Assembly (NCBI GenBank): GCA_964417965.1
Contig: CAYQJX010000014.1
Location: 50-64,049 of the forward strand
Source of the DNA: an uncultured Elusimicrobiaceae bacterium
GTDB taxonomy: Bacteria; Elusimicrobiota; Elusimicrobia; Elusimicrobiales; UBA9959
Direction: 5' to 3'
Length of the DNA: 64,000 nucleotides
Shown: positions 8,227 to 57,063 of the stretch, in pieces
Position numbering within the stretch: position 1 is the first letter of the stretch
Layout of the letters: every line of letters starts with the position of its first letter
The notes under the pieces: generated by a model
The model's database searches: none
What the model saw: the letters and a program-made list of their open reading frames with translations, nothing else
What the model was told of the DNA's origin: nothing
Program-made: the position numbers and the translations under genes

Positions 8227-8244
8227 ATTGTTTTCCTTGCGCCG

Positions 8245-8991
8245 TTAAAGGCGTTCCACTTCGGTCTTCAGGGCCCAGCCCTTTATCCCTTCCTTGGGCA
8301 GGCCGATCTCGTAATAGGTCTCGTCGTCGTAATCCAGGATCTTCACCAGGCGGCCCTCGGGGGCCGAGGCGTAGGTCTTAAAGCTCTCACCCGGCCCGCT
8401 CAGCATGCGCGCCCCCCCCGGCCTGGTGACCACGCCGGCGGCCGTGAAGGTGGAGGACTGCCTGGCGCCCAGCCAGGCCAGCGACAGCAGCAGCAGCGCG
8501 CCCAGCGCCAGCGAGGCCCGGCCCGCCGCCCGCCCCGGCCCGCTGCCGTCGAGCAGGAAGCCGGCGCCGCCGGTGAGGCAGGCCAGCCAGAAGAACAGGA
8601 TGGCGGCCGCCTTCAGCTCGCCGTCGGAGAACAGGTAGTAAAGCAGGTGCAGCGCCTTGGGCGCGCCTTCGGGCACCAGGTTCTGGCCGGTCTGGCGCAG
8701 GGCGAAATCCAGGTTGGCCCTGATGTCGCCCGAGCGCGGGTTGAGCGTGAAGGCCTTGGCGTAGTTGAAGACGGCCGGGCCCATGCGGCCTAGCCTGAAC
8801 TGGGCGTTGCCGGCGTTATACCAGCCCCAGGGGTTGGCCGGCTCTTTTTTTATGACCTTCCGGTAGCCTTCCAGCGCCTCTTCGTAGCGGGCGTTCTTGT
8901 AATGGTCGTTGAACTCGGCCATCTCGCTCAGGTCGTAGGCATAGGCGGCGGCCGGCAGGGCCAGCAGGCAGGCGAGCAGGAGCTTGTTCAT
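8245..8991 (-). CDS. batE: BatE-like TPR + SH3 domain protein
   Basis: Signal peptide, TPR-like N-terminus, two TM helices and a C-terminal SH3-like region (VKILDYDDETYYEI...GWAL). Last gene of the Bat-type operon, with a 4-nt overlap to batD. Confidence 0.6.
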   Translation of the reverse strand: MNKLLLACLLALPAAAYAYDLSEMAEFNDHYKNARYEEALEGYRKVIKKEPANPWGWYNAGNAQFRLGRMGPAVFNYAKAFTLNPRSGDIRANLDFALRQTGQNLVPEGAPKALHLLYYLFSDGELKAAAILFFWLACLTGGAGFLLDGSGPGRAAGRASLALGALLLLSLAWLGARQSSTFTAAGVVTRPGGARMLSGPGESFKTYASAPEGRLVKILDYDDETYYEIGLPKEGIKGWALKTEVERL

Positions 8992-28763: not shown

Positions 28764-28837
28764 TGGAGCGGGTGATGGGAATCGAACCCACGTCTAATGC
28801 TTGGGAAGCACTCGTTCTACCATTGAACTACACCCGC
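28764..28837 (-). tRNA. tRNA-Gly (anticodon CCC), CCA encoded
   Basis: The 74-nt minus-strand sequence GCGGGTG-TA-GTTC-AATGGTA-GAAC-G-AGTGC-TTCCCAA-GCATT-AGAC-GTGGG-TTCGATT-CCCAT-CACCCGC-T-CCA folds as a cloverleaf. Confidence 0.9.
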
Positions 28838-43616: not shown

Positions 43617-43850
43617 ATGGTAACCGGACTTGTGCTAGTTAAACTGATGCCTGGCAAGGAGAAGCAGACCCTCTCCAAGCTGAAGGGCCTTAAGAGCGTG
43701 GTTCACATGTCGGCCGTTTTCGGCCGCTGGGACCTCGTGCTGGATATGGAGACGGACGACCTTCCCACCCTTTCCAATATCGTGGTGCAGGAAATACGCT
43801 GCATACCGGGCGTGCTCACCACCGAGACCCTGGTCACTACTTCCCTCTGA
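43617..43850 (+). CDS. Stand-alone Lrp/AsnC-type ligand-binding (RAM) domain protein
   Basis: 77 aa from the internal ATG. The pattern V.V........L..L......V......G.WD..L......D......V...I..I.GV..T.T is present. Confidence 0.55.
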   Translation: MVTGLVLVKLMPGKEKQTLSKLKGLKSVVHMSAVFGRWDLVLDMETDDLPTLSNIVVQEIRCIPGVLTTETLVTTSL

Positions 43851-43853
43851 CGC

Positions 43854-44366
43854 ATGCGCCGGCTGACGGCCCTGCTGCTGCTGGCCCTCTCCGTCCCCGC
43901 CGCCGCCCAGATGTACCTGGGGGCGGAGGTCGGGCCGGACGCTTTTTTGCGGGGTGAGGAGGCCAAACCCGACACGTCTGGGGAGGACGCTTTCGCCTGG
44001 GCCCTGGGCACGGAAGTGAGCACGGCCACGCTCTACTCCGTTTTTGAATCCACCGAGCCCGAGCGGGAAATGTTCAAATACCTGCGGCGCGGGATCTACC
44101 GGCAGGAGCTGGCCGCGCTGCTGCTGCTCTCCGAAAGTTCGTCCGTCCCGGTCTCCAAATTGGCCGCCGAACTGCCCAAGGCCGGAGGTTTTTCCGGGCT
44201 GGCTAAAAAGCACAAGGCCGACGCCGTGGCCCTGTTCGCCGCCGCGGGCAGGCTTAAGGCCGCCGCCGACCTGCGCCTCCCGCTTTTCCTGGCGGTCTCC
44301 ACTTCAACTTTCTCGGTCCCGGTTTCTACCGCCGCGGCTCCGGCGCTGCCCGATGAAAAGAAATAG
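43854..44366 (+). CDS. Secreted hypothetical protein
   Basis: Signal peptide LLLALSVPAAAQ, then Ala-rich sequence. Coding status is supported mainly by operon position. Confidence 0.4.
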   Translation: MRRLTALLLLALSVPAAAQMYLGAEVGPDAFLRGEEAKPDTSGEDAFAWALGTEVSTATLYSVFESTEPEREMFKYLRRGIYRQELAALLLLSESSSVPVSKLAAELPKAGGFSGLAKKHKADAVALFAAAGRLKAAADLRLPLFLAVSTSTFSVPVSTAAAPALPDEKK

Positions 44367-44820
44367 CCTCCTCCTCGCCGCCGTCCTGTGCTGCCTCGGT
44401 TCGGCCGCCGCCGCGCTGCGGGTGCCGGCCGGCGCCGCCTCCGCCGAGCTCACGCTGCCGGATGGCTACAAGGTGGCCGCGGAACTCGCGCTCACTCCTG
44501 ATGAGCAGGCGAAAGGCCTGATGTTCAGGGAAACCCTTCCCCCCGGCCGCGGCATGCTTTTTGTTTTCGGCGACTACGCCCCCAGGTCTTTCTGGATGAA
44601 GAATACTTTTGTGGACCTGGATATGGTGTTCCTGGACGACAGGCTGAAGGTGGTGAAGGTCTTTCACCGCGTGCCCCGGTCCCGGGCCGGCCAGCCCGAC
44701 TCCGAAGTGGCCCGGGCCACCGCCTCCGCCGCCTTGGTACTGGAACTGCCCGCCGGAGCCGCCAGGGCCCACGGCGTAAAACCCGGCGCCAGGCTGAAAA
44801 TAATTTTCCCCAAAAAATAA
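44353..44820 (+). CDS. DUF192 family protein
   Basis: Internal ATG at 44353 and a signal peptide. GLMFR....GMLFVF....FWMKNT..DLD..F motif. Confidence 0.65.
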   Translation: MKRNSLLLAAVLCCLGSAAAALRVPAGAASAELTLPDGYKVAAELALTPDEQAKGLMFRETLPPGRGMLFVFGDYAPRSFWMKNTFVDLDMVFLDDRLKVVKVFHRVPRSRAGQPDSEVARATASAALVLELPAGAARAHGVKPGARLKIIFPKK

Positions 44821-44863: not shown

Positions 44864-46558
44864 CTAGCGGAAGTAGTAGTAATGCTGCACGCGCTCAAGC
44901 CCGGCGAGCGGGAAGGGCGCGCAGCTCTTGCCCGACACCGGTACCGTCAGCACCAGCTGGTGCTGGTTATAGTATTCGTCGTAGTCCGCGAGCACCCTGA
45001 GCTCCCCTTTCGGCAGGGCTTCCACCGGCCTCTCCAGCACCAGCGGCGGGAACTTGGGCCTGGAGTGCAGCAGCTTGGCGCCGCTGGTCAGGTTCACCGA
45101 ATGGTACTGGCCGTACCCCGAGGCGCAGAAGCTGCGGTTGGTGGCGGAGTTGGGCACGAAATTAACCGTGACGGCGCAGGACTGGTGCGGGGCCAGCGAC
45201 TGCCCGGTGCAGCCGTCCGACACGACCTTGAAGACGCCCGGCAGGCGGGAGGTGTCCAGCTTTATCCTGTGCCAGGTCTCGCCGCCGGTATTGTAGACCC
45301 GCAGCACCTCGGCCATGTTGTAGCCCTCGGGCACCAGGTCGAAATCCAGCCTGTTGGAGTAGCCGGCGGAGCCGTTCCAGTTGTGCTGCCACCACCAGGT
45401 GAGGTAGGAGTATTTGGACTCGCCCTTCAGCTCCACGTAGGTCTGGTAGTCCATCGCCCCGTCGTCGTTGGAGCCTATGGAGAGGCCGCTGTAGTACTCC
45501 TTGGCCGCCTTCGGCGAGAAGCGCACGCTGAACGTGCAGCTCTTGCCCGGCGCCAGCCTGGCGGAGGTGCACTTGTCCTGTTCCAGGTAGAACGGCGTCT
45601 CGTCGTCCATGTTCTCTATCCTGCCCAGCCGCAGCTCGGCGTCGCCGATGTTCATGATGATGACCAGGCGGGCGCCTGTTTCGTAGTTGTACATCTTGCC
45701 GAAGTCCAGCGAGCGGGGCCAGATGAAAGCGACCGGCATGGGGTCGCGTTTTGTCTTTTCCTCCCGCGGGCCGCCGCCGGTGGTGGAGGCCTCTTCCGGG
45801 CTCTGCGCGTTCTGGGCGGCCGACTGGCCGCCGCCGTGGGAGCCGTAGTCGCCGGAGCTGAGGTCGCGGCCGCTCCCCTGCCCGCCGGAGGAGGAAAAAG
45901 AAGAATCTTCGGAGCCCGACTCGCTGCCCTGGCCCAACCGGCCCTGCGGCCCGGAGCCCTGCCGCCCGCTCCGGGAGAGGCCCGCGCCGGAGAACCCGGA
46001 GGAGAAGGCGCTCTTTTTTCCGCCCGAAGCGGCTCCGCTCCCCGCAGCCTGCAGGCGCGGGGCCTGCTGCCCGGCGACGCGCAGCGTCCCGGCCCCGGCC
46101 GACTGGCCGCCGGTCCCGTTGCCGGACCGGGGGTTGTAAACGTTGCCGCCCTGCTGCTGCGCTTCCTGCGCCTGAGCCGCGGCCGCCAGCGCTTCCGGGT
46201 CGTACTTGACCTCCGCGCGGGCCTGCCGCATGAATTCCCGCAGCTCCGCCTTGCTCATCTGTTTTCGCGGTTTTACGGGCGCCTCTTTGACGGCGTCGGT
46301 TTCTTTGGAGTAGCCTTGGTTGACCTTGCGGAACAGCTCTATGGAGGAGCCTGACTGCTGCTCGGTGCGCGCCAGCGGGGAGGAGCCGGGGGCGTATTTG
46401 GGGCCGGAGTCGAATTTAAAGTCGGGAGTGGCGCCGGCGGGAGAGGTCGAATCCCCGGAGCCGCCCGCGAAATAACCTATCCCTACGGCCAGCGCGGCGG
46501 TAAGCACCACCGCGGGCGCGGCCGCGGCCTTCCAGTTAATCACATACCTGCCGTTCAT
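44864..46558 (-). CDS. Membrane-anchored protein with long G/S/Q-rich disordered region and two Ig-like (choice-of-anchor-D/ASH-type) domains
   Basis: 564 aa with a GGAGGA Shine-Dalgarno and an N-terminal TM helix. ~200-aa low-complexity region. Two modules carry C...L.PG.SC...V.F.P signatures (CTSARLAPGKSCTFSVRFSP; CTGQSLAPHQSCAVTVNFVP). Confidence 0.55.
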   Translation of the reverse strand: MNGRYVINWKAAAAPAVVLTAALAVGIGYFAGGSGDSTSPAGATPDFKFDSGPKYAPGSSPLARTEQQSGSSIELFRKVNQGYSKETDAVKEAPVKPRKQMSKAELREFMRQARAEVKYDPEALAAAAQAQEAQQQGGNVYNPRSGNGTGGQSAGAGTLRVAGQQAPRLQAAGSGAASGGKKSAFSSGFSGAGLSRSGRQGSGPQGRLGQGSESGSEDSSFSSSGGQGSGRDLSSGDYGSHGGGQSAAQNAQSPEEASTTGGGPREEKTKRDPMPVAFIWPRSLDFGKMYNYETGARLVIIMNIGDAELRLGRIENMDDETPFYLEQDKCTSARLAPGKSCTFSVRFSPKAAKEYYSGLSIGSNDDGAMDYQTYVELKGESKYSYLTWWWQHNWNGSAGYSNRLDFDLVPEGYNMAEVLRVYNTGGETWHRIKLDTSRLPGVFKVVSDGCTGQSLAPHQSCAVTVNFVPNSATNRSFCASGYGQYHSVNLTSGAKLLHSRPKFPPLVLERPVEALPKGELRVLADYDEYYNQHQLVLTVPVSGKSCAPFPLAGLERVQHYYYFR

Positions 46559-46675
46559 AAATCCTCCGTCCCCGCCCCGGACCCTATGAAGTTAGTATAC
46601 ACCACGCCCGGCCGGTTTTCAAGGTTTAAAAGTAACCTTTGTCTCTTTTTATTTTTATTGTAGAATAATAAGCCA

Positions 46676-47008
46676 ATGGGCATCTGGGACAACGCCTTCA
46701 AAATTCCGGAACCTCCGGAACCGACTCCGGAAGAAAAACGGCTTTTGGAGATCCTTGCAGGAAAAGTCCGCAAGCGCAGTATGGGAGATGTGGCCGCTTT
46801 CATGGTGGAGAGCACCCGGCCCCTGCACGAGCTCGGAGCCCAGAGCTTAATTTTTATAGAACCGGCGCTGGCGGCCTTCTTCGGCAAAGAGGAGACCGCC
46901 AAGTACCGGGCCATACTGGAAAACAGTAAGGCTGTTACATACCTGGTCAACAAGCTTAGCGAAGAAACCGCGAAAAAGGAAGACCCCAATGTCAAAAAAA
47001 GACCTTGA
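46676..47008 (+). CDS. Small helical hypothetical protein, first gene of the nine-gene operon
   Basis: 110 aa. TAGAAT lies 9 nt upstream of the ATG. Overlaps the next gene by 20 nt. Confidence 0.45.
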   Translation: MGIWDNAFKIPEPPEPTPEEKRLLEILAGKVRKRSMGDVAAFMVESTRPLHELGAQSLIFIEPALAAFFGKEETAKYRAILENSKAVTYLVNKLSEETAKKEDPNVKKRP

Positions 47009-48782
47009 AGTTATCATAGCCACCGACTGCGGCAGCACCACCACCAAGGCCGTGCTGATAGAAAAGAAAGGCGACACCTACCGCCAGACTTTCCGGGGCG
47101 AGGCTCCGACCACCGTGGAAGCTCCCTTTGAGGACGTGACGAAAGGCGTGCTTAACTCGATAACCGAGGTAGAAGAACTCTCCGGCCGCAAGATCCTGGA
47201 CGGCGAGAAGATCATAACGCCCAATAGCGGCAACATCGGCGCGGATATCTACGTGTCCACCTCCTCGGCCGGCGGCGGCCTGCAGATGATGGTGGCCGGC
47301 GCCGTGAAGGCCATGACCGGAGAATCCGCCCAGCGCTGCGCGCTCGGCGCGGGCGCCATAGTGATGGACGTGCTGGCCTCCAACGACGGCCGCGCGGACC
47401 ACGAGAAGATCGAGCGCATCCGCCAGCTGCGCCCCGACATGATGCTGCTTTCCGGCGGCACCGACGGCGGGACCGTGACCCATGTGGTGGAGCTCGCCCA
47501 GTTCCTGAAAGCCGCGGACCCGAAGCCCCGCCTGGGCGCTTCCTACAAGCTGCCGGTCATCTACGCCGGCAACAACATGGCCCATGAGAAGATCAAAGAG
47601 ATCCTCGGCGACCGCACCGCGCTGATCATTACCGAGAACCTGCGCCCGACCCTGGAGCGCGAGAACCTGATGCCCGCGCGCCACAAGATCCACGATATTT
47701 TCCTTGAGCACGTGATGCAGCAGGCTCCCGGCTACCCGCGCCTGATGAAGATGGTGGGTGCGCCCATCATGCCCACCCCCGCGGCCGTGGGCACCATGAC
47801 CGAGAAGTTCGCCAAGGCCAACGGTTTTAACGTGCTGGCCGTGGACATCGGCGGTGCCACCACCGACGTCTTCTCCGTGTTCAGCGGGGTGTTCAACCGC
47901 ACCGTCAGCGCCAACCTGGGCATGAGCTACTCCATCTCCAACGTGATGGCCGAGGCGGGCCTGGCCAACATCCTGCGGTGGCTGCCGTTCGACATAGACG
48001 AGCAGGACCTGCGCAACCGCCTCAAGAACAAGATGATCCGCCCCACCACTATCCCGCAGACGGTGGAGGACCTGCAGATAGAGCATGCTGTATCCCGCGA
48101 GGCGCTGCGCCTGGCTTTCGACCAGCACAAGGCGCTGGCCGTCGGCCTGAAGGGCGTGCAGCAGGAGCGCTCCATCTCCGACGCTTTCGACCAGACCGCC
48201 TCCGGCCAGAGCCTCATCAACGTGATGAAGCTCGACTATGTGATCGGCTCCGGCGGCATCCTGGCGCATTCCCCCCGCCGCACCCAGTCGATGATGATGA
48301 TGATAGACGCCTACCAGCCCGAAGGCATCACCCGCATGGCCGTGGACAGCATCTTCATGATGCCGCACCTGGGCGTGCTGGCCCAGATCAGCGAGAAGGC
48401 CGCGCTGGACGTGTTCTACCACGACTGCCTAGTGCGCATGGGCACCTGCCTCGCGCCCAAGGGCCTGGCCAAGGACGGCCAGCTGATCATGGAGTGGGAA
48501 GTCACCGGCTCCGACGGCAAGAAACAGGCCGGGCAGCTGCGCTTCGGCGACATCCTGCATGTGCCTTTTGATTCCCCGAAAGCCAGGCTCGTGGCCAAAC
48601 CCGTAAAGGGCTTTGACATGGGCGCCGGTTCCGGCAGCAGGGTGGAGGCGGAGATAGAGGGCGGCGTGGTGGGCCTGGTGCTCGACGGCCGCGGCCGGCC
48701 CTTCAATATCTCCAAGGAACCCGCCAAGCGCCGCGATAACCTTAACAAGTGGTACAAGTCCATGGGGATGTACCCGGTGTAA
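46989..48782 (+). CDS. GlmL/MutL-like ASKHA-fold ATPase
   Basis: 597 aa with an AAGGAAGA Shine-Dalgarno. ATDCGSTTTK phosphate-1 motif, a second VDIGGATTDV motif and SGGTDGG. Collinear with the glutamate-mutase accessory protein family, but no mutase genes are nearby. Confidence 0.65.
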   Translation: MSKKDLEVIIATDCGSTTTKAVLIEKKGDTYRQTFRGEAPTTVEAPFEDVTKGVLNSITEVEELSGRKILDGEKIITPNSGNIGADIYVSTSSAGGGLQMMVAGAVKAMTGESAQRCALGAGAIVMDVLASNDGRADHEKIERIRQLRPDMMLLSGGTDGGTVTHVVELAQFLKAADPKPRLGASYKLPVIYAGNNMAHEKIKEILGDRTALIITENLRPTLERENLMPARHKIHDIFLEHVMQQAPGYPRLMKMVGAPIMPTPAAVGTMTEKFAKANGFNVLAVDIGGATTDVFSVFSGVFNRTVSANLGMSYSISNVMAEAGLANILRWLPFDIDEQDLRNRLKNKMIRPTTIPQTVEDLQIEHAVSREALRLAFDQHKALAVGLKGVQQERSISDAFDQTASGQSLINVMKLDYVIGSGGILAHSPRRTQSMMMMIDAYQPEGITRMAVDSIFMMPHLGVLAQISEKAALDVFYHDCLVRMGTCLAPKGLAKDGQLIMEWEVTGSDGKKQAGQLRFGDILHVPFDSPKARLVAKPVKGFDMGAGSGSRVEAEIEGGVVGLVLDGRGRPFNISKEPAKRRDNLNKWYKSMGMYPV

Positions 48783-48816
48783 CGCGACAGATCTTACGAA
48801 AACTGGAGAAAACAAT

Positions 48817-49941
48817 ATGGCTCACGCATATACCCCCGGACTTAAAGTAATGCCCTGCACGCTGTTCAGGAAGAAGCGCCTGCTGCCGATCCCCGGCAAA
48901 GTGCTGGTGGCCGAAGGCAAGCAGGTGGAAGCTACCGACATAGTGGCCCAGACCGAACTGCCCGGCAAGGTGTTCCCGATCAATATAGCCAACCGCATGT
49001 CGGTCGCCCCGGAAGAGATAAAGGACCTGCTGCTGAAAAAAGAGGGCGATACGGTCAGGAAGGGCGAGATCATCGCCGAGAACAAGCCTTTCATCAAGTG
49101 GTTCAAAACTACCCTGGAATCGCCGATAGACGGGACGGTGGACTCTGTCTCCCACCTTACCGGCCAGATCATGCTGCGCGAGCCTCCGAAGGTGCTGCCG
49201 CTGCCGGCCTACATTAAAGGCAGGGTGGTGGAGGTGACCCCCGAGTTCGGCGTGACCATAGAGTCCGAAGGCACGTTCATCCAGGGCATCTTCGGCATCG
49301 GCGGCGAGACCAACGGCGAGATCCACATGGCCGCGAAGAGCCCCGACGAAGAGCTTACCCCGGAATCCATTAACGAAGCCTGCCGCGGCAAGATCGTGAT
49401 CGGCGGCAAGCACGCGGGGATCACCGCCATCAAGCGCGGCGTAGAGATGGGCGTGAAAGCCATCGTGGTGGGCGGCATTCACGACCGCGACCTGCGCCAG
49501 CTGCTGGGCTACGACATAGGCGTGGCCGTGACCGGCACCGAGAAGATAGGGCTGACCGTGATCGTTACCGAGGGCTTCGGCATGATCCCGATGGCCGAGT
49601 ACACCTTTAAACTGCTGGCCTCCCGCAACGGCGAGAAAGCTTCCGTCTCCGGCGCCACGCAGATCCGCGCCGGCGTGATGCGGCCCGAGATCATCGTACC
49701 CGGCTTCCCCAAGAACGTCACCGAGTGCAAGAAGGACCAGGGCCGCGGCTGGATAGAACCCGGCGACCCCATCCGCATCATCCGCGAGCCGCACTTCGGC
49801 GTGATCGGCACGGTGAAGTCCCTGCCCCCGGAGCTGACCGTGATCGGCAGCGAATCCCACGCCCGCGTGCTGGAAGTTACCCTTGACGGCGGGGAAGTGA
49901 TAGTAATCCCCCGCGCCAACATCGAAGTTTTGGAGAAGTAG
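48817..49941 (+). CDS. Conserved hypothetical protein (N-terminal barrel-sandwich hybrid, central Rossmann-like region, C-terminal KOW-like region)
   Basis: 374 aa with a GGAGAA Shine-Dalgarno. The domain guesses come from sequence patterns only (GDTVRKGEIIAE; VVGGIHDRDL; TVIVTEGFG). Confidence 0.5.
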   Translation: MAHAYTPGLKVMPCTLFRKKRLLPIPGKVLVAEGKQVEATDIVAQTELPGKVFPINIANRMSVAPEEIKDLLLKKEGDTVRKGEIIAENKPFIKWFKTTLESPIDGTVDSVSHLTGQIMLREPPKVLPLPAYIKGRVVEVTPEFGVTIESEGTFIQGIFGIGGETNGEIHMAAKSPDEELTPESINEACRGKIVIGGKHAGITAIKRGVEMGVKAIVVGGIHDRDLRQLLGYDIGVAVTGTEKIGLTVIVTEGFGMIPMAEYTFKLLASRNGEKASVSGATQIRAGVMRPEIIVPGFPKNVTECKKDQGRGWIEPGDPIRIIREPHFGVIGTVKSLPPELTVIGSESHARVLEVTLDGGEVIVIPRANIEVLEK

Positions 49942-49962
49942 GCAGCGCGGCCGGCGGCCGTT

Positions 49963-50010
49963 TATCGGTAACCAGCCGGGAGCTTTAAGCCCCTGAACTG
50001 GTTACCGATA
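49963..50010 (+). other. Intra-operon hairpin (13-bp stem, 22-nt loop)
   Basis: tatcggtaaccag (49963-49975) pairs with ctggttaccgata (49998-50010). No T-run follows. Confidence 0.4.
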
Positions 50011-50039
50011 ACTATTCCCGGGCCGCCCCCCGGCAACTT

Positions 50040-52271
50040 ATGGCTAAAAAAGCACAGCAAAAAAAGACGCCTCCCGCCGCGGCCGCGGTGACCCCCAGGC
50101 TGCCTGCCATGGCCGTGACCGCCCTGATCGCGGCGTGGCTGCTCGTCGTGCTGGTAAATTACACGGCCCAGAATGGCTTTTTTACGCTGTCCCCTTTCGC
50201 CCCCCCGCTCTGGCTGACCAACCTGGGCCGGGCCGGCCACCTGTTCATGTACGCGCCGCAGCTGCTGCTGCTGGCCCTGTTCTCGGCCTCCGCGCTGCTG
50301 CTCGGCGGGACCCTGCTGCGGGCGGTCGCCGGGCCGGAGAATAAAGACATCGGCGGCCTGGACTGGCTGCTGTTCTCGCTGGGCCTCGGCTTCGGCGCGC
50401 TTTCGCTGCTGACCCTGGGCCTGGGTTTTGCCGGCCAGCTCAACCGGCCCGCCCTCCTCGCCGTCCTGGGCGCCGCCTGCGTGCCCGGGGCCGTTTGGTT
50501 CAGGGCGGATTTCAGCGGGCGGCTGGCCGGGCTGCTGGCCGAAGTCAGGTCCGTCCGGTTCTCCGGCTTCGACCTGGTGCTGTTGTTCCTGCTGGCGCTG
50601 TACGGCGCCTCGGCGCTGGTCTGGACCCTGGCGCCGGAGATCTTCTTTGACTCCCTGGTCTACCACCTCGCCGTGCCGTCATCCTACCTGCAGGAGGGCC
50701 GCGTTCTCGCCGAGCCCCACAACCTCAATTCCGCCTTCCCGCTGCTGATGCAGATGCTTTACGCGGCCGGCCTGCTGCTTTCCGACGACGTGCTGCCCAA
50801 GCTGATGCATTTCTCCACGGGGCTGTTCCTGCTGGGCACGCTGTTCGCCATGGGCCGGCGCTGGTTTTCGGTTACCGCCGGGCTGCTCGCCTGCGTCATC
50901 TTCCTGGGCATGCCGATGTCGCTTATCAACATGTGCAGCACCGGCGTGGAGATAGGTTCGGCCTGGTTCACCGCGCTGGCCGTCTACGCCCTGCTCCTTT
51001 TTTCCGCCAGGGAGGGCGGCCCCGGGCCCGTTTTCGACAGGACCCTGCTGCTGGCCGGGATCTTCGCGGGCCTCGCCTGCGGCACCAAGTACCCGGCCCT
51101 GTTCACCGTCATTGCCGGCGGCGCGGTGGTCCTCTACCGGCGCCCGGACATGGACTCGCCCCGCGACTACGGCCTGGCCCTCAAGCGGGCGCTGGTCTTC
51201 GGAGGGGCGGCCGCGCTTGTCTTTCTGCCGTGGCCGCTGAAGAACCTGGTCTTCCACGGCAACCCGCTGTACCCGTTCTTCGGCAAGTTGCTGGGCGGGC
51301 AGCTGGTGGACCCGGTGAAGTGGGCTATCTTCAACTCTGACTGTTTCTCGCGCGACCTGGGCGCCGCCTTCCGCACGGTCAGCGACTTTTTCCGGTTCGT
51401 GTTCCACCCCTGGTACATTACTATGTCCGGGATGGGCAACGCCGATTTCGTCGGACCGTTCCTCCTGATCTGCCTGCCGCTGCTGCTGCTGTACCGGCTG
51501 CAGAAGCCGGTGCTGCGCCACCTGGCGCTGTACCTGGCCGTGATGTGGTGCCTGTGGGCGCTGTCCACCACCATGCCCCGCTACTTCCTCCCCTCCCTGT
51601 CCCTGCTGAGCCTGCTGCTGGCCGCGGTGATAACGGAGTCGGGCAGCGCCGTCCTGAAATGGACCCTGCAGGGCGCGCTGGTGGTTTTCTCCCTCTACAG
51701 CGCGCAGTGGATCAGCGAGCTGACAAAATCCCAGGAGGGCTGGCGGGTGGTCTTCGGGCTGCAGTCCAGGGCGGAGTACCTGAGCGCCGCCCATTCGGCG
51801 TATCCCATGCCCTACTACCCGGCCATGGAATATATAAATTCCTCGCTGCCTCCGGACAGCCGGGTGCTGTTCGCCGGGGACAGCCGGAGCTTTTTCTGCG
51901 AGCGCAAGTCGGTCGGGGTTTCCGTGCACGACGTGCACCCGCTGGTGCTCTTCGCCCGCGCCTCCTCCACCCCGGAGGAAATGCAGGCGCGGGTAGCCGC
52001 CGCCGGGATAACCCACCTTTTCCTCAACCTGGGCGAGGCGGTGCGCCTGGATAAGAGCTACCACCTGTTCCAGTGGGACGAGAAAAGCCTCGGCGTCTTT
52101 AACGCCTGGTGGGCCCGTTACGCCGAGCAGCTCTGGAGCGACATGCGCAACAGCCCGTCGGATTACCGCCTGCTGTTCGTCTACAGGCTGACCCCCGGGG
52201 GCAGGCCCGCCTCGGCGCCGCAGCCCCACAATTACATTTACGACCTTTACCTGAAGGGTCTGGAAAAATAG
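50040..52271 (+). CDS. GT-C fold membrane glycosyltransferase (ArnT/PMT-like) with C-terminal soluble domain
   Basis: 743 aa with ~13 TM segments. An early periplasmic-loop acidic motif (EIFFDSLVYH). ~200-aa C-terminal non-membrane domain. The start is uncertain because there is no Shine-Dalgarno. Confidence 0.6.
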   Translation: MAKKAQQKKTPPAAAAVTPRLPAMAVTALIAAWLLVVLVNYTAQNGFFTLSPFAPPLWLTNLGRAGHLFMYAPQLLLLALFSASALLLGGTLLRAVAGPENKDIGGLDWLLFSLGLGFGALSLLTLGLGFAGQLNRPALLAVLGAACVPGAVWFRADFSGRLAGLLAEVRSVRFSGFDLVLLFLLALYGASALVWTLAPEIFFDSLVYHLAVPSSYLQEGRVLAEPHNLNSAFPLLMQMLYAAGLLLSDDVLPKLMHFSTGLFLLGTLFAMGRRWFSVTAGLLACVIFLGMPMSLINMCSTGVEIGSAWFTALAVYALLLFSAREGGPGPVFDRTLLLAGIFAGLACGTKYPALFTVIAGGAVVLYRRPDMDSPRDYGLALKRALVFGGAAALVFLPWPLKNLVFHGNPLYPFFGKLLGGQLVDPVKWAIFNSDCFSRDLGAAFRTVSDFFRFVFHPWYITMSGMGNADFVGPFLLICLPLLLLYRLQKPVLRHLALYLAVMWCLWALSTTMPRYFLPSLSLLSLLLAAVITESGSAVLKWTLQGALVVFSLYSAQWISELTKSQEGWRVVFGLQSRAEYLSAAHSAYPMPYYPAMEYINSSLPPDSRVLFAGDSRSFFCERKSVGVSVHDVHPLVLFARASSTPEEMQARVAAAGITHLFLNLGEAVRLDKSYHLFQWDEKSLGVFNAWWARYAEQLWSDMRNSPSDYRLLFVYRLTPGGRPASAPQPHNYIYDLYLKGLEK

Positions 52272-52286
52272 CGGGAGGATAAGCCA

Positions 52287-53456
52287 GTGAGCGAAAAACT
52301 TTCGATAGTCATACCGGCGTACAACGAGCAGGCTTCCATCGCCGGCATAGTCGGGCGCTGCCTCGCCGCCGGGGCGCCGATCTGCGCGGCCACCGGCCTG
52401 ACAGGAGTGGAAGTGCTGGTCGTGGACGACGGCTCGCGCGATAAGACCGGCGAGATCGCCGCCGCTATCCCGGGCGCCAGGCTGATAACCCACCCGCAGA
52501 ACAAGGGCTACGGCCAGGCCCTGATGACGGGGTTCGCCGCCGCGACGGGCGACTACCTCAGCTTCCTCGACGCCGACGGGACCTGCGACCCGCTGGCTTT
52601 CATAGAACTTTACAAGGCCCTTAAGCGGGAGAACGCCGACATGGCCGTGGGCAACCGCCTGCACGCCGGCTCGCAGATGCCGCGGGTGCGGTATATAGGC
52701 AACCGCCTCTACGGCTGGCTGATCTCGCTGCTTTCCGGCGTGCACGTGGAGGACACGGCCAGCGGCATGCGCCTCTTTTCCGCCCGGCTGCTGCCGCGCC
52801 TGGCCCCGCTGCCGAGCGGCCTGCACTTTACCCCCGCCATGACCGCCCGCATGGCCTGCATGGGCGCGCGCATAACGGAAACCCCCATCCCTTACGCCGA
52901 GCGGGAGGGCAGGTCCAAGCTGAGCGTGGTGAGGGACGGGCTCAGGTTCCTGCGCGTCATCCTGGGCATCATCTTCGCCTATTTCCCGCTGCGCATCTTC
53001 GGCCCCATAGGCCTGGTCTTCCTGGTCACCGCGCTGGCCTATTCCATCGGCCCCGTTTCCTTTTACCTGCGCAACCGCTACCTGCACGAGGACGTGATCT
53101 ACCGGCTGATCACCATCTCCACGCTGTGCGTCTGCGGCCTTACGGCGCTGATCTTCGGGCTGATAGGCCAGAGGGTGTCCAATGTTTCGGTGCGCCGCGT
53201 CCGCGGCGCCCTGGAAGCCGGCTGGCTGCGGGGCGGCTCCCTGCTGGCCGGGGCGCTGCTCGGCGCCGCCGGGGTGGCCCTTAATTCCTGGACGATCCTG
53301 GAGTACCTCTCGAGCGGGCGCATAACCATCCACTGGGTCTACGTGCTGACCGGGGGCCTGCTGGTCATCCTGGGCACGCTGCTGCTCTGCGCCGGCATCA
53401 TGATGGCGATACTGGACCACCTGCCCGACTCCGGCGCCCCCAGCCGTTCGCTTTAG
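52287..53456 (+). CDS. GT2 polyprenyl-phosphate glycosyltransferase-like enzyme with C-terminal TM helices
   Basis: GTG start with a GGGAGGA Shine-Dalgarno. IVIPAYNE, VVDDGSRD, NKGYG and a DAD motif. Four C-terminal TM helices as in ArnC/GtrB/DPM1-like enzymes. Confidence 0.8.
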   Translation: MSEKLSIVIPAYNEQASIAGIVGRCLAAGAPICAATGLTGVEVLVVDDGSRDKTGEIAAAIPGARLITHPQNKGYGQALMTGFAAATGDYLSFLDADGTCDPLAFIELYKALKRENADMAVGNRLHAGSQMPRVRYIGNRLYGWLISLLSGVHVEDTASGMRLFSARLLPRLAPLPSGLHFTPAMTARMACMGARITETPIPYAEREGRSKLSVVRDGLRFLRVILGIIFAYFPLRIFGPIGLVFLVTALAYSIGPVSFYLRNRYLHEDVIYRLITISTLCVCGLTALIFGLIGQRVSNVSVRRVRGALEAGWLRGGSLLAGALLGAAGVALNSWTILEYLSSGRITIHWVYVLTGGLLVILGTLLLCAGIMMAILDHLPDSGAPSRSL

Positions 53457-53504
53457 TGTTTTCCCTTGCCTGAAAAATCCATAAAGTGTATATTATTAAC
53501 AGTT

Positions 53505-54758
53505 ATGTTAAAAACACGACTCAACCTTGCTGTGTTATCTGTTTTCCTTGCGGCTTCCGTTGTTTCAGCCGCGACTCCCGCCTCCCAGAAAAATGCCCCG
53601 ACCGCCCCGGACCTGTCCGGCTTCGCGGCCAAGGACATGCCCTATGACAAGGGCGAGGCGGTTCTCCTTACCTGGCCCTCCGGGCCCGCCGACGTGCCAG
53701 GCGCCGTCTACCAGGTCTACGCGGCCTCCGGTAAAGACTGGGTCAAGGTGGAAGAGTTCCCGGCCGAAACGAAGCTGGCCGCCGACGTCGAGCTGCCCTT
53801 CTGGGCGTGGGACCGCCACGCCGCGCTGCACGTGGTGCAGCTGGACCTGCCCGGCTTCTTCAATGATTTCAAGATAGGCAACGAGTACCGGTTCAAGGTA
53901 AAGTACGTCAACGGCAAGGTGACGGCGGAAAGCGCCGAACTCCCGGCCGCGCCCAAGCCTAACCTCTTCAACCTGGCCCGGCTCAACAACCTGCTGCTGC
54001 TCATCGTGACGACCATCGTCTTCTTCTGGACCGTGTCGCACGCCAAGCGCAAGGGCGGGCTGTTCATCCGCCGCATCGCCGGCCTCGACGCCATAGACGA
54101 AGCCGTCGGCCGCGCCACCGAAATGGGCCGCCCGATCTTCTACTCCACCGGCATCGGCGGCATGAGCGGCGTGCCCACCATCGCCTCTACCTCTATCCTG
54201 GCCGAGGTCGCCAAAAAAGTCGCCGCGCACGACACCCAGCTCAAGGTGCCGCACTTCGACCCCATCGTGATGACCGTCTCCAAGGAGATAGTCAAGCAGG
54301 CCTACGCCGAGGTGAATCGCCTGGACTCCTACCGCGACGACATCAACTTCTTCGTCAGCCAGGACCAGTTCTCCTACGCCGCCTCCGTGGACGGCATGAT
54401 CCACCGCGAGAAGCCGGCCGCCTGCTTCTTCATCGGCCACTTCATGGCCGAGTCGCTGCTGCTGGCCGAGGTCGGCGCCACTACCGGCGCCATCCAGATC
54501 GCCGGCACCGAGCAGGAATCGCAGCTGCCGTTCTTCTTCACCTCCTGCGACTACACGCTCATCGGCGAGGAACTCTACGCCGCCGGCGCGTACCTGTCCA
54601 AGGAGCCCATGCTGCAGAGCACGCTCAAGGTGCAGGACTTCGGCAAGGCCTTCGTGATGTTCTCCATAGTCGCGGGGTCGGCGCTGCTGCTGGCCGGCAC
54701 CTGGTTCAAGATGGACACGCTGGTCACGGTGGTAAAGCACCTCTTCAAGGCCTATTGA
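53505..54758 (+). CDS. Uncharacterised bitopic/polytopic membrane protein (module gene 1)
   Basis: ATG at 53505 is preferred over the TTG at 53466. Signal peptide, a ~130-aa beta-rich exported domain, one TM helix, a ~230-aa soluble domain and a C-terminal TM helix. Confidence 0.55.
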   Translation: MLKTRLNLAVLSVFLAASVVSAATPASQKNAPTAPDLSGFAAKDMPYDKGEAVLLTWPSGPADVPGAVYQVYAASGKDWVKVEEFPAETKLAADVELPFWAWDRHAALHVVQLDLPGFFNDFKIGNEYRFKVKYVNGKVTAESAELPAAPKPNLFNLARLNNLLLLIVTTIVFFWTVSHAKRKGGLFIRRIAGLDAIDEAVGRATEMGRPIFYSTGIGGMSGVPTIASTSILAEVAKKVAAHDTQLKVPHFDPIVMTVSKEIVKQAYAEVNRLDSYRDDINFFVSQDQFSYAASVDGMIHREKPAACFFIGHFMAESLLLAEVGATTGAIQIAGTEQESQLPFFFTSCDYTLIGEELYAAGAYLSKEPMLQSTLKVQDFGKAFVMFSIVAGSALLLAGTWFKMDTLVTVVKHLFKAY

Positions 54759-54759
54759 T

Positions 54760-55431
54760 ATGACATTGATAAAAAAACACATACCGCTGGCTATCTGCTT
54801 CATCGTCGGCCTCCTGACGCTGAGCTCCTATTATGTCCCTACACAGGCCTCTGAAAAATATGTGGAGACCATGAATAAGTGGGAGAACATCGTGGCCGGC
54901 TTCGCGTTCCTGCTGGGCCTGTTCAGCCTGTTCTTCTCGCATACCCGCAAGATCACCCGCAAGGTGGACGGCTGGGGCTACAGCCTGTTCGTCTTTGTGG
55001 GCTTCCTCGCGATGGTCGTCCCGGCCATCGTGAGCAACGGCAAGCAGATGGTCGGCGCCGACCTGACCGGTCTGGGCTGGGGCTACCGCTTCCTGTTCAA
55101 TGCCCTCTCCGGCACGATGTTCTCGGTGCTGGCATTCTACATCGTCTCCACGGCGTACCGCGCGTTCCGCATCAAGTCGCTGCAGGCCGGCGTGCTGTTC
55201 GCGGCGGCGCTGGTGCTGATGCTCGCCAAGGTGCCGCTCGGCCAGATGATCTGGGAAAGCCTGTTCGGCTGGACCGGGGTCTGGGATATCGCCCAGATCG
55301 GCCAGTGGCTCATGGACGTCCCGGCGGTGGCCGGCAAGCGCGGCATCATGATGGGCCTCGCGATAGGCGGCATCGTGACGGCGCTGAAGATCATCTTCGG
55401 CATCGAGCGCCAGTACATGGGTAAGGACTGA
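54760..55431 (+). CDS. Uncharacterised polytopic membrane protein (module gene 2)
   Basis: 223 aa with ~6 TM segments. Starts 1 nt after the upstream stop. Confidence 0.55.
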   Translation: MTLIKKHIPLAICFIVGLLTLSSYYVPTQASEKYVETMNKWENIVAGFAFLLGLFSLFFSHTRKITRKVDGWGYSLFVFVGFLAMVVPAIVSNGKQMVGADLTGLGWGYRFLFNALSGTMFSVLAFYIVSTAYRAFRIKSLQAGVLFAAALVLMLAKVPLGQMIWESLFGWTGVWDIAQIGQWLMDVPAVAGKRGIMMGLAIGGIVTALKIIFGIERQYMGKD

Positions 55432-55434
55432 ACC

Positions 55435-56262
55435 ATGAAAAACATTATCGAAAAGATCCTGAAAATTGACAGGCGCCTGATCTTCCTGGCGCTGACGATC
55501 CTGCTGGTGTTCCCGATCGTCAGGCCGCTGGGCCTGCCGAACAAGAACATCGGCAACGAAGTGAAGGCCCTCTACGAGAAGATCGAGAGTCTGCCCGCCG
55601 GCTCCTTCCTCCTGCTGTCGCTGGATTACGACCCGGCGACCCGCCCCGAGCTGCACCCGCAGGCGGTGGCGGTTATCAAGCACGCCTTCCGCAAGGACCT
55701 GCGCGTCATGATCCTGACGCTGAACGCCGGCGCTACCGGCCTCATCGACGAGATCGGCGAGCGCATCCCCAAGGATATCGCCCCGTCCAAGAAGTACGGG
55801 ACCGACTACGTGATCCTGCCCTACCAGCCCAACCCGGTGGCCGTGATGACGCAGCTCGGCATGGACATGTACCAGATCTACGACAAGGACCGGGACGGCG
55901 CCCTGCTCAGGGAGATGCCGGTCATGAAAGGCATCCGCAACGTCAAGGATATGCAGCTCGGCATGTGCATCACCGGCACGGCCATGCTGGACTACTGGGT
56001 CGCCTACACGGGCGACAAGTTCAAGATGCCCTTTGCCGGCGGCACCACCGCAGTCAGCCAGATAGGTTATGCGCCTTACCTGCAGACCGGCCAGCTGAAG
56101 GGCCTGATGGGCGGCATGAAGGGCGCGGCCGACTACGAGCTGCTGATAGGCGCCAAGGAAAAGGGCACGGCCGGACTGGACGCGCTCAGCCTCGCCCACA
56201 TCATGGTGATAGGCCTGATCGTGGTGGCCAACATCATGATGTTCTGGCTCAAGTACCTGTAA
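55435..56262 (+). CDS. Uncharacterised membrane-anchored protein (module gene 3)
   Basis: 275 aa with N- and C-terminal TM helices flanking a soluble alpha/beta-looking domain. AAGGA Shine-Dalgarno upstream. Confidence 0.55.
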   Translation: MKNIIEKILKIDRRLIFLALTILLVFPIVRPLGLPNKNIGNEVKALYEKIESLPAGSFLLLSLDYDPATRPELHPQAVAVIKHAFRKDLRVMILTLNAGATGLIDEIGERIPKDIAPSKKYGTDYVILPYQPNPVAVMTQLGMDMYQIYDKDRDGALLREMPVMKGIRNVKDMQLGMCITGTAMLDYWVAYTGDKFKMPFAGGTTAVSQIGYAPYLQTGQLKGLMGGMKGAADYELLIGAKEKGTAGLDALSLAHIMVIGLIVVANIMMFWLKYL

Positions 56263-56275
56263 TTTAGGAGAAATT

Positions 56276-57013
56276 ATGTCAGAAACAATGTTCATCTTCG
56301 GCGGGTGGGTGGCGGCGGGCCTGACCATCTTCCTGTTCAGCTTCCTCTACAAGGATAACCCGTTCTTCAAAGCGGCGGAGCACCTGTACCTCGGCGCGGG
56401 CATGGGCTGGGTGTTCCAGACCGTGCTCTTCCAGACCTGGATTCCCAAGGTCTGGGAGCCGCTGACCAAGAGCGGCGACTGGACGGTGCTGGTCCCGACC
56501 GTGCTCGGCCTGACGCTGGTGACGCAGTTCTTCCCCAAGATCTCGTGGATGTCGCGCTACGGCTTCACCTTCATCATGGGCTATGGTTCAGGCCTGGTGA
56601 TCCCGCTGACGATCTCCACCGACCTGCTCAAGCAGATCGGCGGCACGATGGCGCCCTTCATGGTCTCCGAGGTCACGCGCGGCAACATCTGGTCGCTGGT
56701 CAACGGCGGCATCATCGCGGTGGGCTTTATCTGCGTGCTGTTCTACTTCTTCTTCTCGGTAGAGCACAAGGGCGCCATAAAGAAGGCCTCGAATATCGGC
56801 ATCTACTTCCTGATGCTCTACTTCGGGGCGGCCTTCGGCAATACCGTCATGGGCCGCTTCTCGCTGCTCTACGGGCGTTTCGACGACCTGTACAAGTATT
56901 CGTCGCCCAAGTACTTCTACGCCACGCACATCATCCTGGGCGTAATGGTGCTCTACTTCATAGTGGACCACTTCCGCACGCGCAAGCCCGCGGTAGAGGA
57001 AGAAGCCGCTTAA
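56276..57013 (+). CDS. Uncharacterised polytopic membrane protein (module gene 4)
   Basis: 245 aa with ~7 TM segments. AGGAG Shine-Dalgarno upstream. Confidence 0.55.
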   Translation: MSETMFIFGGWVAAGLTIFLFSFLYKDNPFFKAAEHLYLGAGMGWVFQTVLFQTWIPKVWEPLTKSGDWTVLVPTVLGLTLVTQFFPKISWMSRYGFTFIMGYGSGLVIPLTISTDLLKQIGGTMAPFMVSEVTRGNIWSLVNGGIIAVGFICVLFYFFFSVEHKGAIKKASNIGIYFLMLYFGAAFGNTVMGRFSLLYGRFDDLYKYSSPKYFYATHIILGVMVLYFIVDHFRTRKPAVEEEAA

Positions 57014-57030
57014 GGCCGAAAGGCAAAAAG

Positions 57031-57063
57031 AAAGGCGGGCCGGTTATCCGGCCCGCCTTTTTT
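57031..57063. terminator. Bidirectional rho-independent terminator ending the nine-gene operon
   Basis: The aggcgggccgg-ttat-ccggcccgcct hairpin with an A-rich left flank and a T6 right flank. Confidence 0.8.

Follow-up and report, generated by a model that had tools for sequence, protein, structure and literature searches.

Organisation of the Operon

The window considered here is a stretch of 64,000 nucleotides (nt) from an uncultured Elusimicrobiaceae bacterium (GTDB order Elusimicrobiales; contig CAYQJX010000014.1), and towards its 3' end it carries an operon of nine genes, g1 to g9, for a predicted ATPase with two partner proteins, two glycosyltransferase-like enzymes, and four membrane proteins. 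The operon is a mosaic of a conserved seven-gene core and a two-gene cassette placed in an insertion slot. In what follows, g1-g2-g3 are called the trio, g6-g7-g8-g9 the quartet, and the g3–g6 junction the slot, while the seven-gene core is trio plus quartet. A preliminary description, made from the sequence of the window, had given nine genes on one strand at the positions listed in Table 1, which is confirmed, and an independent gene call (ENA ERZ27284381 k139_675306, 126 kb) returns the same nine, the sole difference being the start of g6 (ATG 53505, giving 417 amino acids (aa), versus TTG 53466).

Table 1. Genes and other features of the operon, in positions of the window.
Feature	Position	Strand	Description
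Divergent promoter-like region	46594-46692	both	sigma-70-like hexamer pairs; consensus match only
g1	46676-47008	+	110-aa soluble helical protein; opens the ATPase trio
g2	46989-48782	+	597-aa ASKHA-fold protein, predicted ATPase; MutL/GlmL family, PF13941
g3	48817-49941	+	374-aa cytoplasmic four-domain partner
RNA hairpin in the 98-nt g3-g4 gap	49947-50026	+	core/cassette boundary; from folding energy
g4	50040-52271	+	743-aa polytopic membrane protein, GT-C-like (PMT_2/ArnT type); lineage-specific cargo
g5	52287-53456	+	389-aa predicted GT2 polyprenyl-phosphate glycosyltransferase (ArnC/GtrB/DPMS type); lineage-specific cargo
Promoter-like site in the AT-rich gap 5' of g6	53466-53494	+	TTGCCT-17-TATATT, 9/12 matches; consensus match only
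g6	53505-54758 (alternative TTG start 53466)	+	417-aa DUF6754 protein, PF20539
g7	54760-55431	+	223-aa polytopic membrane protein, about 6 transmembrane helices
g8	55435-56262	+	275-aa bitopic protein
g9	56276-57013	+	245-aa polytopic membrane protein, 5-7 transmembrane helices
Bidirectional intrinsic terminator	57028-57063	both	GC-rich hairpin, common to the operon and a convergent SurA/PpiC-like gene

In order along the operon, g1 and g2 overlap by 20 nt and the gaps that follow measure 34, 98, 15, 48 (9 with the TTG start of g6), 1, 3, and 13 nt, so that the tight junctions reported earlier (the overlap and the gaps of 1, 3, 13, and 15 nt) agree with the coordinates. The outer boundaries were also found as described before: the divergent promoter-like hexamers lie in AT-rich intergenic DNA between g1 and a minus-strand gene for a 564-aa protein, and the hairpin at the other end, with 16-nt arms (94% complementary) and a 4-nt loop, is read as a bidirectional terminator because it has an A-run upstream and a T-run downstream. 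A stable hairpin borders the cassette, g4 and g5, on its upstream side, and on the downstream side lies an AT-rich gap that contains a promoter-like site. The hairpin after g3 lacks a T-run; its arms are 29 nt long and pair perfectly over a core of 14 bp, its minimum free energy is −51.9 kcal/mol (z = −4.35), and in 38% of the related loci g3 is followed by a hairpin of unrelated sequence. The hairpin of the window may be an attenuator or an mRNA-stabilising element that sets the ratio of the trio to the downstream genes. The promoter-like site is a possible internal promoter for the membrane quartet.

Conservation of the Core and Contents of the Slot

The comparison drew on over 90 related loci. 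With the DUF6754 alignment as query, a scan that took one genome from each GTDB species yielded 80 loci, 65 of them from Elusimicrobiota and the rest from lineages including Latescibacterota, Planctomycetales, Eisenbacteria, WOR-3, Stahlbacteria, TA06, and Poribacteria; the nine window proteins were run against these 80 loci by tblastn, from which the figures on layout, identity, and colinearity derive. Look-ups anchored on g2 or g3 homologues covered Latescibacterota/Handelsmanbacteria-type, Gemmatimonadota, Planctomycetota, and Oligoflexia sequences and long-read circular metagenome-assembled genomes (MAGs). Protein families were checked in Pfam, NCBIfam, PADLOC, and PDB sequence profiles, and AlphaFold2 (AF2) models of g3 and g6 were compared with the PDB by Foldseek. 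The closest relatives of the window are Elusimicrobia MAGs.

The quartet is colinear in all 57 Elusimicrobiota loci and in 11 of 12 loci of other phyla, the exception holding a second copy. The genes g1, g2, and g3 always occur together, and they lie within 10 kb of g6 in 35 of 40 Elusimicrobiota loci. Outside Elusimicrobiales, all nine look-ups anchored on g2 or g3 have the DUF6754 gene, the homologue of g6, immediately 3' of g3; in eight of them the contig is long enough for further quartet genes to be visible downstream, and a glycosyltransferase inside the cluster was found in none of the nine. The gap from g3 to g6 is shorter than 250 nt in 16 loci, five other lineages among them, and the trio abuts the quartet without glycosyltransferases in deep Elusimicrobiota, Latescibacterota, Gemmatimonadota, Planctomycetota, and Oligoflexia. 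Elusimicrobiota as a phylum, Latescibacterota together with Handelsmanbacteria, and the other three lineages just named inherit the core as one block, and it occurs in about ten bacterial phyla; sequence searches gave at least 8000 matches (sequence clusters) for g2, at least 8000 for g3, and at least 7926 for g6. The quartet is also found with no trio seen nearby in WOR-3, Stahlbacteria, TA06, Eisenbacteria, and a Planctomycetales genome, and a Poribacteria contig carries g6 and is too short to show g7–g9.

The slot itself is variable. In most Elusimicrobiales, it holds a single gene of the GT-C glycosyltransferase class, and its other contents include two GT-C genes; a GT-C gene with a GT4, epimerase, B12-radical-SAM, or FAD oxidoreductase gene; a TldD/E peptidase pair (locus L065); oppABCDF genes with or without a GT-C gene; and a second complete g6–g9 module with a GT-C gene. 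The cargo in Elusimicrobiales is mostly glycan-related. Because the trio adjoins the quartet without glycosyltransferases elsewhere and the content of the slot varies, the operon is read as a core plus a cassette. The preliminary description had proposed to check whether the parts of the operon are distributed independently, and the answer is divided, since the glycosyltransferase genes are, while trio and quartet are linked. Chance juxtaposition of unrelated units on one strand is highly improbable and holds for the glycosyltransferase cassette only, which is independent of the rest; a candidate internal promoter and a hairpin also stand between the three blocks of the operon. For trio and quartet, the colinearity of the quartet, the adjacency of DUF6754 to g3 in every look-up across at least five phyla, and the overlapping or 1–13-nt junctions effectively refute it.

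The Cytoplasmic Trio

The second gene of the operon, g2, matches the whole length of the MutL profile PF13941 (E = 5e-127; score 424.9 bits, cut-off 27; residues 9–479 correspond to profile positions 1–449 of 450) and is built of a MutL/GlmL part (residues 1–480) and a beta-rich C-terminal extension of about 120 aa (approximately residues 480–597). Nine sequences from two phyla share all three ASKHA motifs without variation: phosphate-1 (D13/G15/T17-19/K20), phosphate-2 (D286-I-G-G-A-T-T-D293), and adenosine (G420-S-G-G423). By these motifs, g2 is an ASKHA-fold protein with an intact nucleotide site and a predicted ATPase; the PDB profile search gave no sequence relative. In NCBIfam it stays below the cut-offs of the GlmL equivalog NF040745 (232.9 vs 475 bits), of the Or-4 equivalog (215.9 vs 600), and of the subfamily TIGR01319 (168.5 vs 204). 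Within 10 kb, neither the window nor the contexts from other lineages encode a B12-dependent client (glutamate mutase, aminomutase, or dehydratase), and B12-binding domains were seen only in the radical-SAM cargo genes of two loci. The sub-cut-off equivalog score and the absence of a mutase context speak against a role of g2 as GlmL proper or as a reactivase of a B12 enzyme. In public databases, NCBI names relatives of g2 from Latescibacteria, Gemmatimonadetes, and Handelsmanbacteria (P0391, P0404, P0450, and others) 'methylaspartate mutase' or 'glutamate mutase L'; these names are likely a systematic misannotation by homology and are probably misleading, because no mutase occurs in any context examined.

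The protein g2 is strongly conserved, with an identity of 72–98% across Elusimicrobiota (median 88%) and 68% to Latescibacterota, a degree of conservation which we take to be about that of EF-Tu or ATP synthase beta. The corresponding values of g3 are 58–98% and 53%, and the membrane proteins g6–g9 are about 28–51% identical between phyla. Since the genes of one cluster diverge so unequally, we infer that g2 has stayed so similar under constraint and not through recent transfer.

The small protein g1 belongs to no family in Pfam or NCBIfam; it precedes g2 in every phylum examined and keeps the motifs W..AF and ES.RPL.F.GSQ. Outside Elusimicrobiota, a small protein with two transmembrane helices, called g0 here (138–154 aa, motif SRYFFPT), is encoded 5' of g1 (L082 1242-1706; L086 4169-4627; L090 9273-9689; Oligoflexia L085 7377-8150, as a fused form), and by eye it resembles a bacterial PH domain. 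In the Oligoflexia locus, g0 and g1 are one protein of 257 aa, a fusion by which the trio is physically tied to the membrane.

The third member, g3, has no transmembrane helix and begins with the invariant MAHAYTPGL. Its AF2 model (predicted local distance difference test score (pLDDT) 85.7, predicted template modelling score 0.75) consists of a barrel-sandwich hybrid, a beta-barrel, a small alpha/beta domain, and a KOW/SH3-like C-terminus. Foldseek against the PDB gave single-domain matches only (NusG/Spt5 KOW, the hybrid barrels of BesA and RNA polymerase, and PA-like domains) and found no whole-chain relative; in Pfam there are only sub-threshold matches to hybrid-barrel families, including a weak one to Biotin_lipoyl, and the PDB profile search gave nothing meaningful. 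Some homologues (P0180, P0182, and P0192 = L083 10001-11425) carry an N-terminal PilZ domain, which binds cyclic di-GMP (c-di-GMP), and there the invariant start becomes internal and reads MTHAYTPGL or MTRAYTPGL.

Three more specific roles of g3 were considered and set aside. The idea of a biotinyl/lipoyl carrier was prompted by the weak Biotin_lipoyl match and by an upstream BPL/LplA gene in Latescibacterota-type loci, and it was rejected on the finding that the hairpin position is K, R, or E and that no lysine is invariant in 116 sequences including other phyla; K74, the lysine invariant in a 10-sequence set of g3, lies outside the hairpin of the hybrid barrel. The BPL/LplA-type ligase near a hybrid-barrel protein is suggestive, yet g3 is without the acceptor lysine. 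An RnfC/NqrA-like subunit is not indicated either, with RnfC_N at 17.4 vs 25.6 bits and no NqrA or RnfC chain among the top 50 Foldseek PDB matches listed, and His3 as a phospho-relay residue is weakened by the Arg at that place in a PilZ-fused homologue.

The Membrane Quartet

The family of one quartet member is recognised: g6 matches PF20539 (DUF6754) with E = 2e-105, a family with 2112 clusters at 50% identity (E ≤ 1e-3). From the N-terminus, g6 is predicted to comprise a signal peptide, a periplasmic Ig/FN3-like beta-sandwich, a transmembrane helix, the near-invariant DUF6754 region, and a C-terminal transmembrane helix, and Foldseek matches to its model are limited to the N-terminal sandwich. 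Across phyla, DxPxDxG in the sandwich is invariant, as is GAIQIAGT...QLPFF.T.CDYTLIGEELYAA.AYLS in the inner region. The outward-facing part varies from about 60 to more than 1000 aa and is made of beta-sandwich modules, which by eye resemble carbohydrate-binding modules, while the inner part is nearly invariant, and with this division g6 looks like a receptor. A search for Rosetta-stone fusions of DUF6754 gave only long N-terminal extensions without any Pfam domain.

The gene g7 always lies directly 3' of g6, and its product conserves the motifs SxAYRxFR and AxxRGIxxGxxxG...GIE; it has no Pfam family, its best NCBIfam match is a sub-threshold one to CrgA (E = 0.002), and its family profile found no credible relative in the PDB (best E = 0.77). 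For g8, the charge distribution predicts an N-in transmembrane helix, a periplasmic alpha/beta domain of about 215 aa, and a C-terminal transmembrane helix, with an invariant DRR before the first helix and the motifs DYDP and GAAEYE; g9 conserves AEH and EH(K/R)G. Neither g8 nor g9 has a family in Pfam, NCBIfam, or the PDB profile search, and family-wide Pfam scans were empty for both (13 members for g9). By topology prediction, the N-terminal domain of g6 and the domain of g8 are periplasmic and the DUF6754 region is cytoplasmic. The pairs g6/g8 and g7/g9 are unrelated by hhalign, which disposes of internal paralogy.

The four PDB profile searches with g6–g9 gave no credible match (best E = 0.3), and the quartet, like g3, could be tied to no described transporter or secretion family in Pfam, NCBIfam, or PDB sequences, nor in Foldseek for g3 and g6. 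Confident homology of the membrane proteins to such a family, which the preliminary description had named as a finding that would refute it, was thus looked for and not found, and its view of the ATPase genes and the membrane module as an undescribed system stands, with no family for the quartet beyond DUF6754 and with tight linkage. PADLOC models of anti-phage systems recognise none of the nine proteins (0 families). Proteins g7 and g9 have no permease match (BPD_transp_1) in Pfam or NCBIfam, an EAA-type coupling loop is not evident in them, and an ABC_tran gene is absent from the window operon; the lack of a permease-domain match and of an ABC ATPase in the operon speaks against a type I ATP-binding cassette (ABC) importer formed by the quartet.

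Duplications and variant reading frames of the quartet were also observed. In L024, two complete membrane modules stand in tandem (5922-9930 and 10001 onward), and in L071 (283-2408; 9803 onward), a g7–g9 set lies about 7 kb upstream of a g6-g7-g8 set, where neither a further g6 copy nor a g9 next to the second set was seen; the quartet is duplicated without a duplicate of the ATPase trio. In the WOR-3/Stahlbacteria loci L072, L073, and L078, a naive call of open reading frames joins g7 and g8 in one frame of 567–642 aa, which may be a start-codon artefact; in the same loci no trio is found nearby, and a ThiI/NFACT-R-like protein, TrkH, TrkA, and Memo are conserved downstream.

It can also be asked whether the core is a transporter at all or a membrane-anchored signalling or cytoskeletal scaffold, in which g2, acting like actin, FtsA, PilM, or MreB, would be tethered through g1 and g3 to the membrane proteins and the N-terminus of g6 would serve as a periplasmic receptor coupled to cell shape, division, adhesion, or motility. 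Such a scaffold would fit the actin- or Hsp70-like degree of conservation of g2, the receptor-like build of g6, the PilZ fusion on g3, the weak CrgA-like match of g7, and the invariant short cytoplasmic motifs at the N-terminus of g3 and in the DRR of g8, which resemble docking peptides. It is nevertheless judged improbable, as polymerisation is, to our knowledge, not known for GlmL-family proteins, two polytopic subunits with polar or charged intramembrane motifs better fit a translocation path, and the gene neighbourhood is nutritional rather than morphogenetic.

The Glycosyltransferase Cassette

The product of g5 matches PF00535 with E = 2e-31 (109 bits, cut-off 23.3), and among PDB sequences it matches ArnC over its full length (E = 1.4e-16, residues 3–299), likewise GtrB (4–300), and DPMS over the GT2 domain. 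It has the DAD motif within FLDADGT and about four C-terminal transmembrane helices (hydrophobic segments at 237–376), and its best NCBIfam matches are to AglJ and to dolichyl-phosphate hexose transferase, all such matches being under the equivalog cut-offs. All four features of the family having been found, g5 is classed as a GT2 enzyme of the ArnC/GtrB/DPMS type. The protein g4 matches PMT_2 only weakly (21.6 bits, under the cut-off of 26.1) and has no PDB sequence match, while its counterparts in the slots of L009 and L029 pass the cut-off (45.2 and 34.8 bits); with about 12 hydrophobic segments and a 205-aa C-terminal soluble part, its layout fits the GT-C family, and g4 is probably a GT-C glycosyltransferase. 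Of the family calls made previously, the GlmL/MutL-like ASKHA ATPase, its multi-domain partner, the GT2 enzyme, and the unassignable membrane proteins are therefore retained, and the GT-C call is weakly supported for g4 itself, with slot-mates that pass.

The glycosyltransferases are passengers, a lineage-specific cassette in a permissive slot, and not integral to the machine. Among the loci compared, a GT2 gene occurs only in the window and in its nearest relative L002, and g3 abuts g6 directly in the 16 loci mentioned above, so that the earlier claim of the GT2 and GT-C pair as an integral part falls. Identity to g4 is 26–40% in most loci, 59% in L022 and L034, and 93% in L002, whereas the core genes of the loci with GT-C are mostly about 55–95% identical. 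The G+C content of window positions 50000–52000, in the region of g4, is 0.665–0.67 vs 0.60–0.64 in the core genes, and the AT skew there is strongly negative; this composition fits a different history of the cassette and could equally be membrane-protein codon content. In function, g5 would load a sugar onto polyprenyl phosphate on the cytoplasmic side, and g4 would pass this sugar on to an acceptor on the outer face. A periplasmic component of the machine is one possible acceptor; the Pro/Thr-rich linker of g6 was considered as the acceptor of GT-C and dropped, loci with and without GT-C being alike by eye.

These data bear directly on the proposal that all nine genes form an ATP-dependent machine for envelope glycoconjugate modification or export, in which GT2 charges the carrier, the quartet and the ATPase flip or export the product, and GT-C transfers it outside. 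The type of g5, the presence of GT-C 3' of g3 in most Elusimicrobiales, and the GT4, epimerase, and B12-radical-SAM genes among the further cargo would agree with it, as would the PilZ domain on g3, which recalls c-di-GMP-controlled polysaccharide secretion, and the operon has no recognisable flippase for a lipid-linked sugar. The proposal is nonetheless unlikely. The cluster occurs without glycosyltransferases in Latescibacterota, Gemmatimonadota, Planctomycetota, Oligoflexia, deep Elusimicrobiota, and several Elusimicrobiales, GT2 is confined to the window and L002, GT-C diverges far faster than the core, and importer and peptidase genes occupy the same slot elsewhere. What stands of the proposal is the undescribed ATPase–membrane system; the glycosyltransferases are passengers, and the genomic context points at least as strongly to uptake.

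Neighbouring Transport Genes and the Proposed Function

Genes of Opp peptide importers recur beside the core in several arrangements. A whole oppABCDF operon fills the slot in six Elusimicrobiales loci, OppD/F fragments stand at contig edges in three more, and another, divergent Opp operon lies upstream in four loci. In E. minutum-like loci, OppD/F follow g3 immediately; in the Latescibacterota-type lineage, OppD/F and a Tricorn-like protease lie 3' of g9; in L082, oppA-B-(IS)-C, with an insertion sequence (IS), lies between g2 and g3; and in Gemmatimonadota, genes for an aminotransferase and then an orphan OppA-type binding protein lead up to the cluster, the latter directly upstream of it, and a TonB-receptor-like gene follows g9. 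An Opp operon is found in about one quarter of the loci, and by a rough estimate chance would place an Opp operon in about 1–2% of random 20-kb stretches. The slot-borne OppD/F are 57–61% identical across phyla and OppA/B/C only 21–37%, and the OppD/F of E. minutum type are a different, second recruited paralogue.

From this context, the core is read as an ATP-driven inner-membrane translocation machine in the uptake of oligomeric nutrients, to which a probability of roughly 0.35 is given. Uptake is favoured over glycoconjugate export because Opp parts, the Tricorn-like protease, and a TonB-type receptor recur beside the core, and an inward direction is more likely than an outward one. The substrate would be an oligomer, most likely peptides or glycopeptides, delivered by outer-membrane and periplasmic uptake components; it would be taken in by the periplasmic modules of g6 and g8 and pass the membrane along a path formed by g7, g9, and the DUF6754 region. 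The complex of g1, g2, and g3, with g1 as an adaptor, would dock on the cytoplasmic face, where ATP binding and hydrolysis would gate or ratchet transport through ATP-dependent affinity switching, as in related ASKHA chaperones and reactivases. In some lineages, the PilZ domain on g3 may add control by c-di-GMP, and in Elusimicrobiales the co-transcribed GT-C may glycosylate a periplasmic component of the core or some other acceptor in the envelope.

A bolder form of this uptake model is unlikely. According to it, the core would be a new class of primary active transporter, in which an ASKHA ATPase, in place of an ABC, P-type, or rotary one, moves peptides or other oligomers across the inner membrane through a four-protein complex without kinship to known permeases; it would be a bacterial counterpart of the Hsp70 import motors of mitochondria and the endoplasmic reticulum (ER), widespread in poorly cultured phyla and gated by c-di-GMP in some.

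Several observations weigh against uptake. What points to it is the gene neighbourhood only, g6–g9 being without homology to transport proteins, and the model of g6 (pLDDT 69.8) has moderate confidence for the DUF6754 region. No Opp, protease, or receptor gene lies near the core in Planctomycetota L086, Oligoflexia L085, and deep Elusimicrobiota L061–L066, nor in the 64-kb window itself, and in seven of eight loci of other phyla anchored on DUF6754, the trio is not within 10 kb. The PilZ fusion, like the glycan cargo of Elusimicrobiales, would be more at home in a system for export or adhesion. We know of no bacterial transporter driven by an ASKHA protein, and g2 is far more conserved than ordinary transport ATPases, which could indicate a structural, polymer-forming, or chaperone role.

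The distribution of OppD/F also allows another model, in which the quartet is an ABC-type permease powered by OppD/F-like ATPases and g1-g2-g3 is a regulatory or chaperone (reactivase-like) module for its assembly, gating, or repair. OppD/F stand without OppB/C near the system in L058, L060, L067, L083, and L093, that is, in E. minutum-like and Latescibacterota-type loci, and they are kept across phyla while the accompanying OppA/B/C are not; in addition, relatives of GlmL are thought to be ATP-dependent reactivating chaperones. Against this, g7 and g9 lack the permease match and the coupling loop, most loci including the window have no ABC ATPase nearby, and g2 is more conserved than OppD/F, which leaves this model with little probability. 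Whatever probability remains beyond the uptake reading and its rivals belongs to none of the explanations set out here.

Other Features around the Core

In the window, three plus-strand genes lie 5' of g1 (43617-44820), for a stand-alone AsnC-type RAM-domain protein of 77 aa, a secreted protein of 170 aa, and a DUF192 protein. Such genes lead directly into g1 in typical Elusimicrobiales (L087), and in the window the gene of the 564-aa protein, which is Ig/ASH-like (44864-46558, minus strand), sits as an insertion between DUF192 and g1. DUF192 likewise lies immediately 5' of g1 in L058, a rearranged locus of the E. minutum-like kind, and it may be an eighth, phylum-specific member. Five loci of Latescibacterota/Handelsmanbacteria type (L067, L082, L083, L092, and L093) conserve the synteny around the cluster in the order fab operon, rnc, BPL/LplA-type ligase, (g0), g1, g2, g3, g6–g9, OppD/F, Tricorn-like protease, and UbiA. 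A search for riboswitches or other RNA elements that would name a ligand was negative for the window and for seven loci; in Rfam, the window gives a single match, to a tRNA gene (28767-28837, minus strand).

Significance of the System

Full-text literature searches on the families (DUF6754/PF20539, PF13941, GlmL, and glutamate mutase in Elusimicrobia) found no description of the system, and this seven-gene membrane machine has apparently never been named or studied. Taken at face value, the labels 'glutamate mutase L' and 'methylaspartate mutase' would lead reconstructions of metabolism astray in Elusimicrobiota, Latescibacterota, and Gemmatimonadota. If the core is an uptake machine, it would change models of nutrient acquisition in these abundant environmental heterotrophs and bring a new energy-coupling principle into membrane transport; if it serves envelope assembly or as a scaffold instead, it would still be a major uncharacterised conserved system. 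The variable slot is a natural guilt-by-association library for the function of the core.

Comparison with Known Systems

Among characterised proteins, GlmL/MutL and the reactivases of B12 enzymes (DdrAB, GdrAB, and EutA) are closest to g2, which is like them in its end-to-end match to PF13941 and its intact ASKHA motifs and which, like DdrA with DdrB, is paired with a smaller partner containing an alpha/beta domain. It differs from them in its sub-equivalog score, in the absence of a mutase nearby, in the extra beta-rich C-terminal domain of about 120 aa, in having four membrane proteins as obligate neighbours, and in its far higher conservation (68% between phyla). Importers of the Opp/Dpp type (PepT family) repeatedly contribute parts that stand among or next to the core genes, in five or more arrangements, and both systems span periplasm to cytoplasm; however, g6–g9 are unlike OppB/C, the ATPase of the core has the ASKHA fold and not that of ABC proteins, and the conserved core has no gene for a binding protein.

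The cassette resembles the pairs ArnC/ArnT, GtrB/GtrC, and DPMS/PMT, g5 being like ArnC and GtrB over its full length and g4 being large, polytopic, and PMT_2-like with a C-terminal soluble domain. Unlike those systems, the operon has no recognisable flippase of the ArnE/F or GtrA type, g4 is under the Pfam cut-off, and the pair is cargo in a foreign operon. With machines controlled by PilZ domains (BcsA, Alg44, and YcgR), the core shares the N-terminal PilZ of some g3 homologues, which, as in Alg44, is combined with a barrel-sandwich hybrid, whereas g3 of the window is without PilZ, cytoplasmic, and free of transmembrane helices, and the core has no synthase.

Like PilM-PilNOP, FtsA, and MreB-MreCD, the core encodes a cytoplasmic ASKHA protein with bitopic and polytopic partners, and its short invariant cytoplasmic peptides could be docking motifs. 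In mtHsp70-TIM23 and BiP-Sec61, an ASKHA ATPase can power translocation towards the side that contains ATP. With PilM, FtsA, MreB, mtHsp70-TIM23, and BiP-Sec61, the core has nothing in common in sequence or fold beyond the ASKHA core, and the resemblance is an analogy. A member of none of these groups, the core resembles, at most by analogy, ASKHA-docked membrane complexes or Hsp70 import motors.

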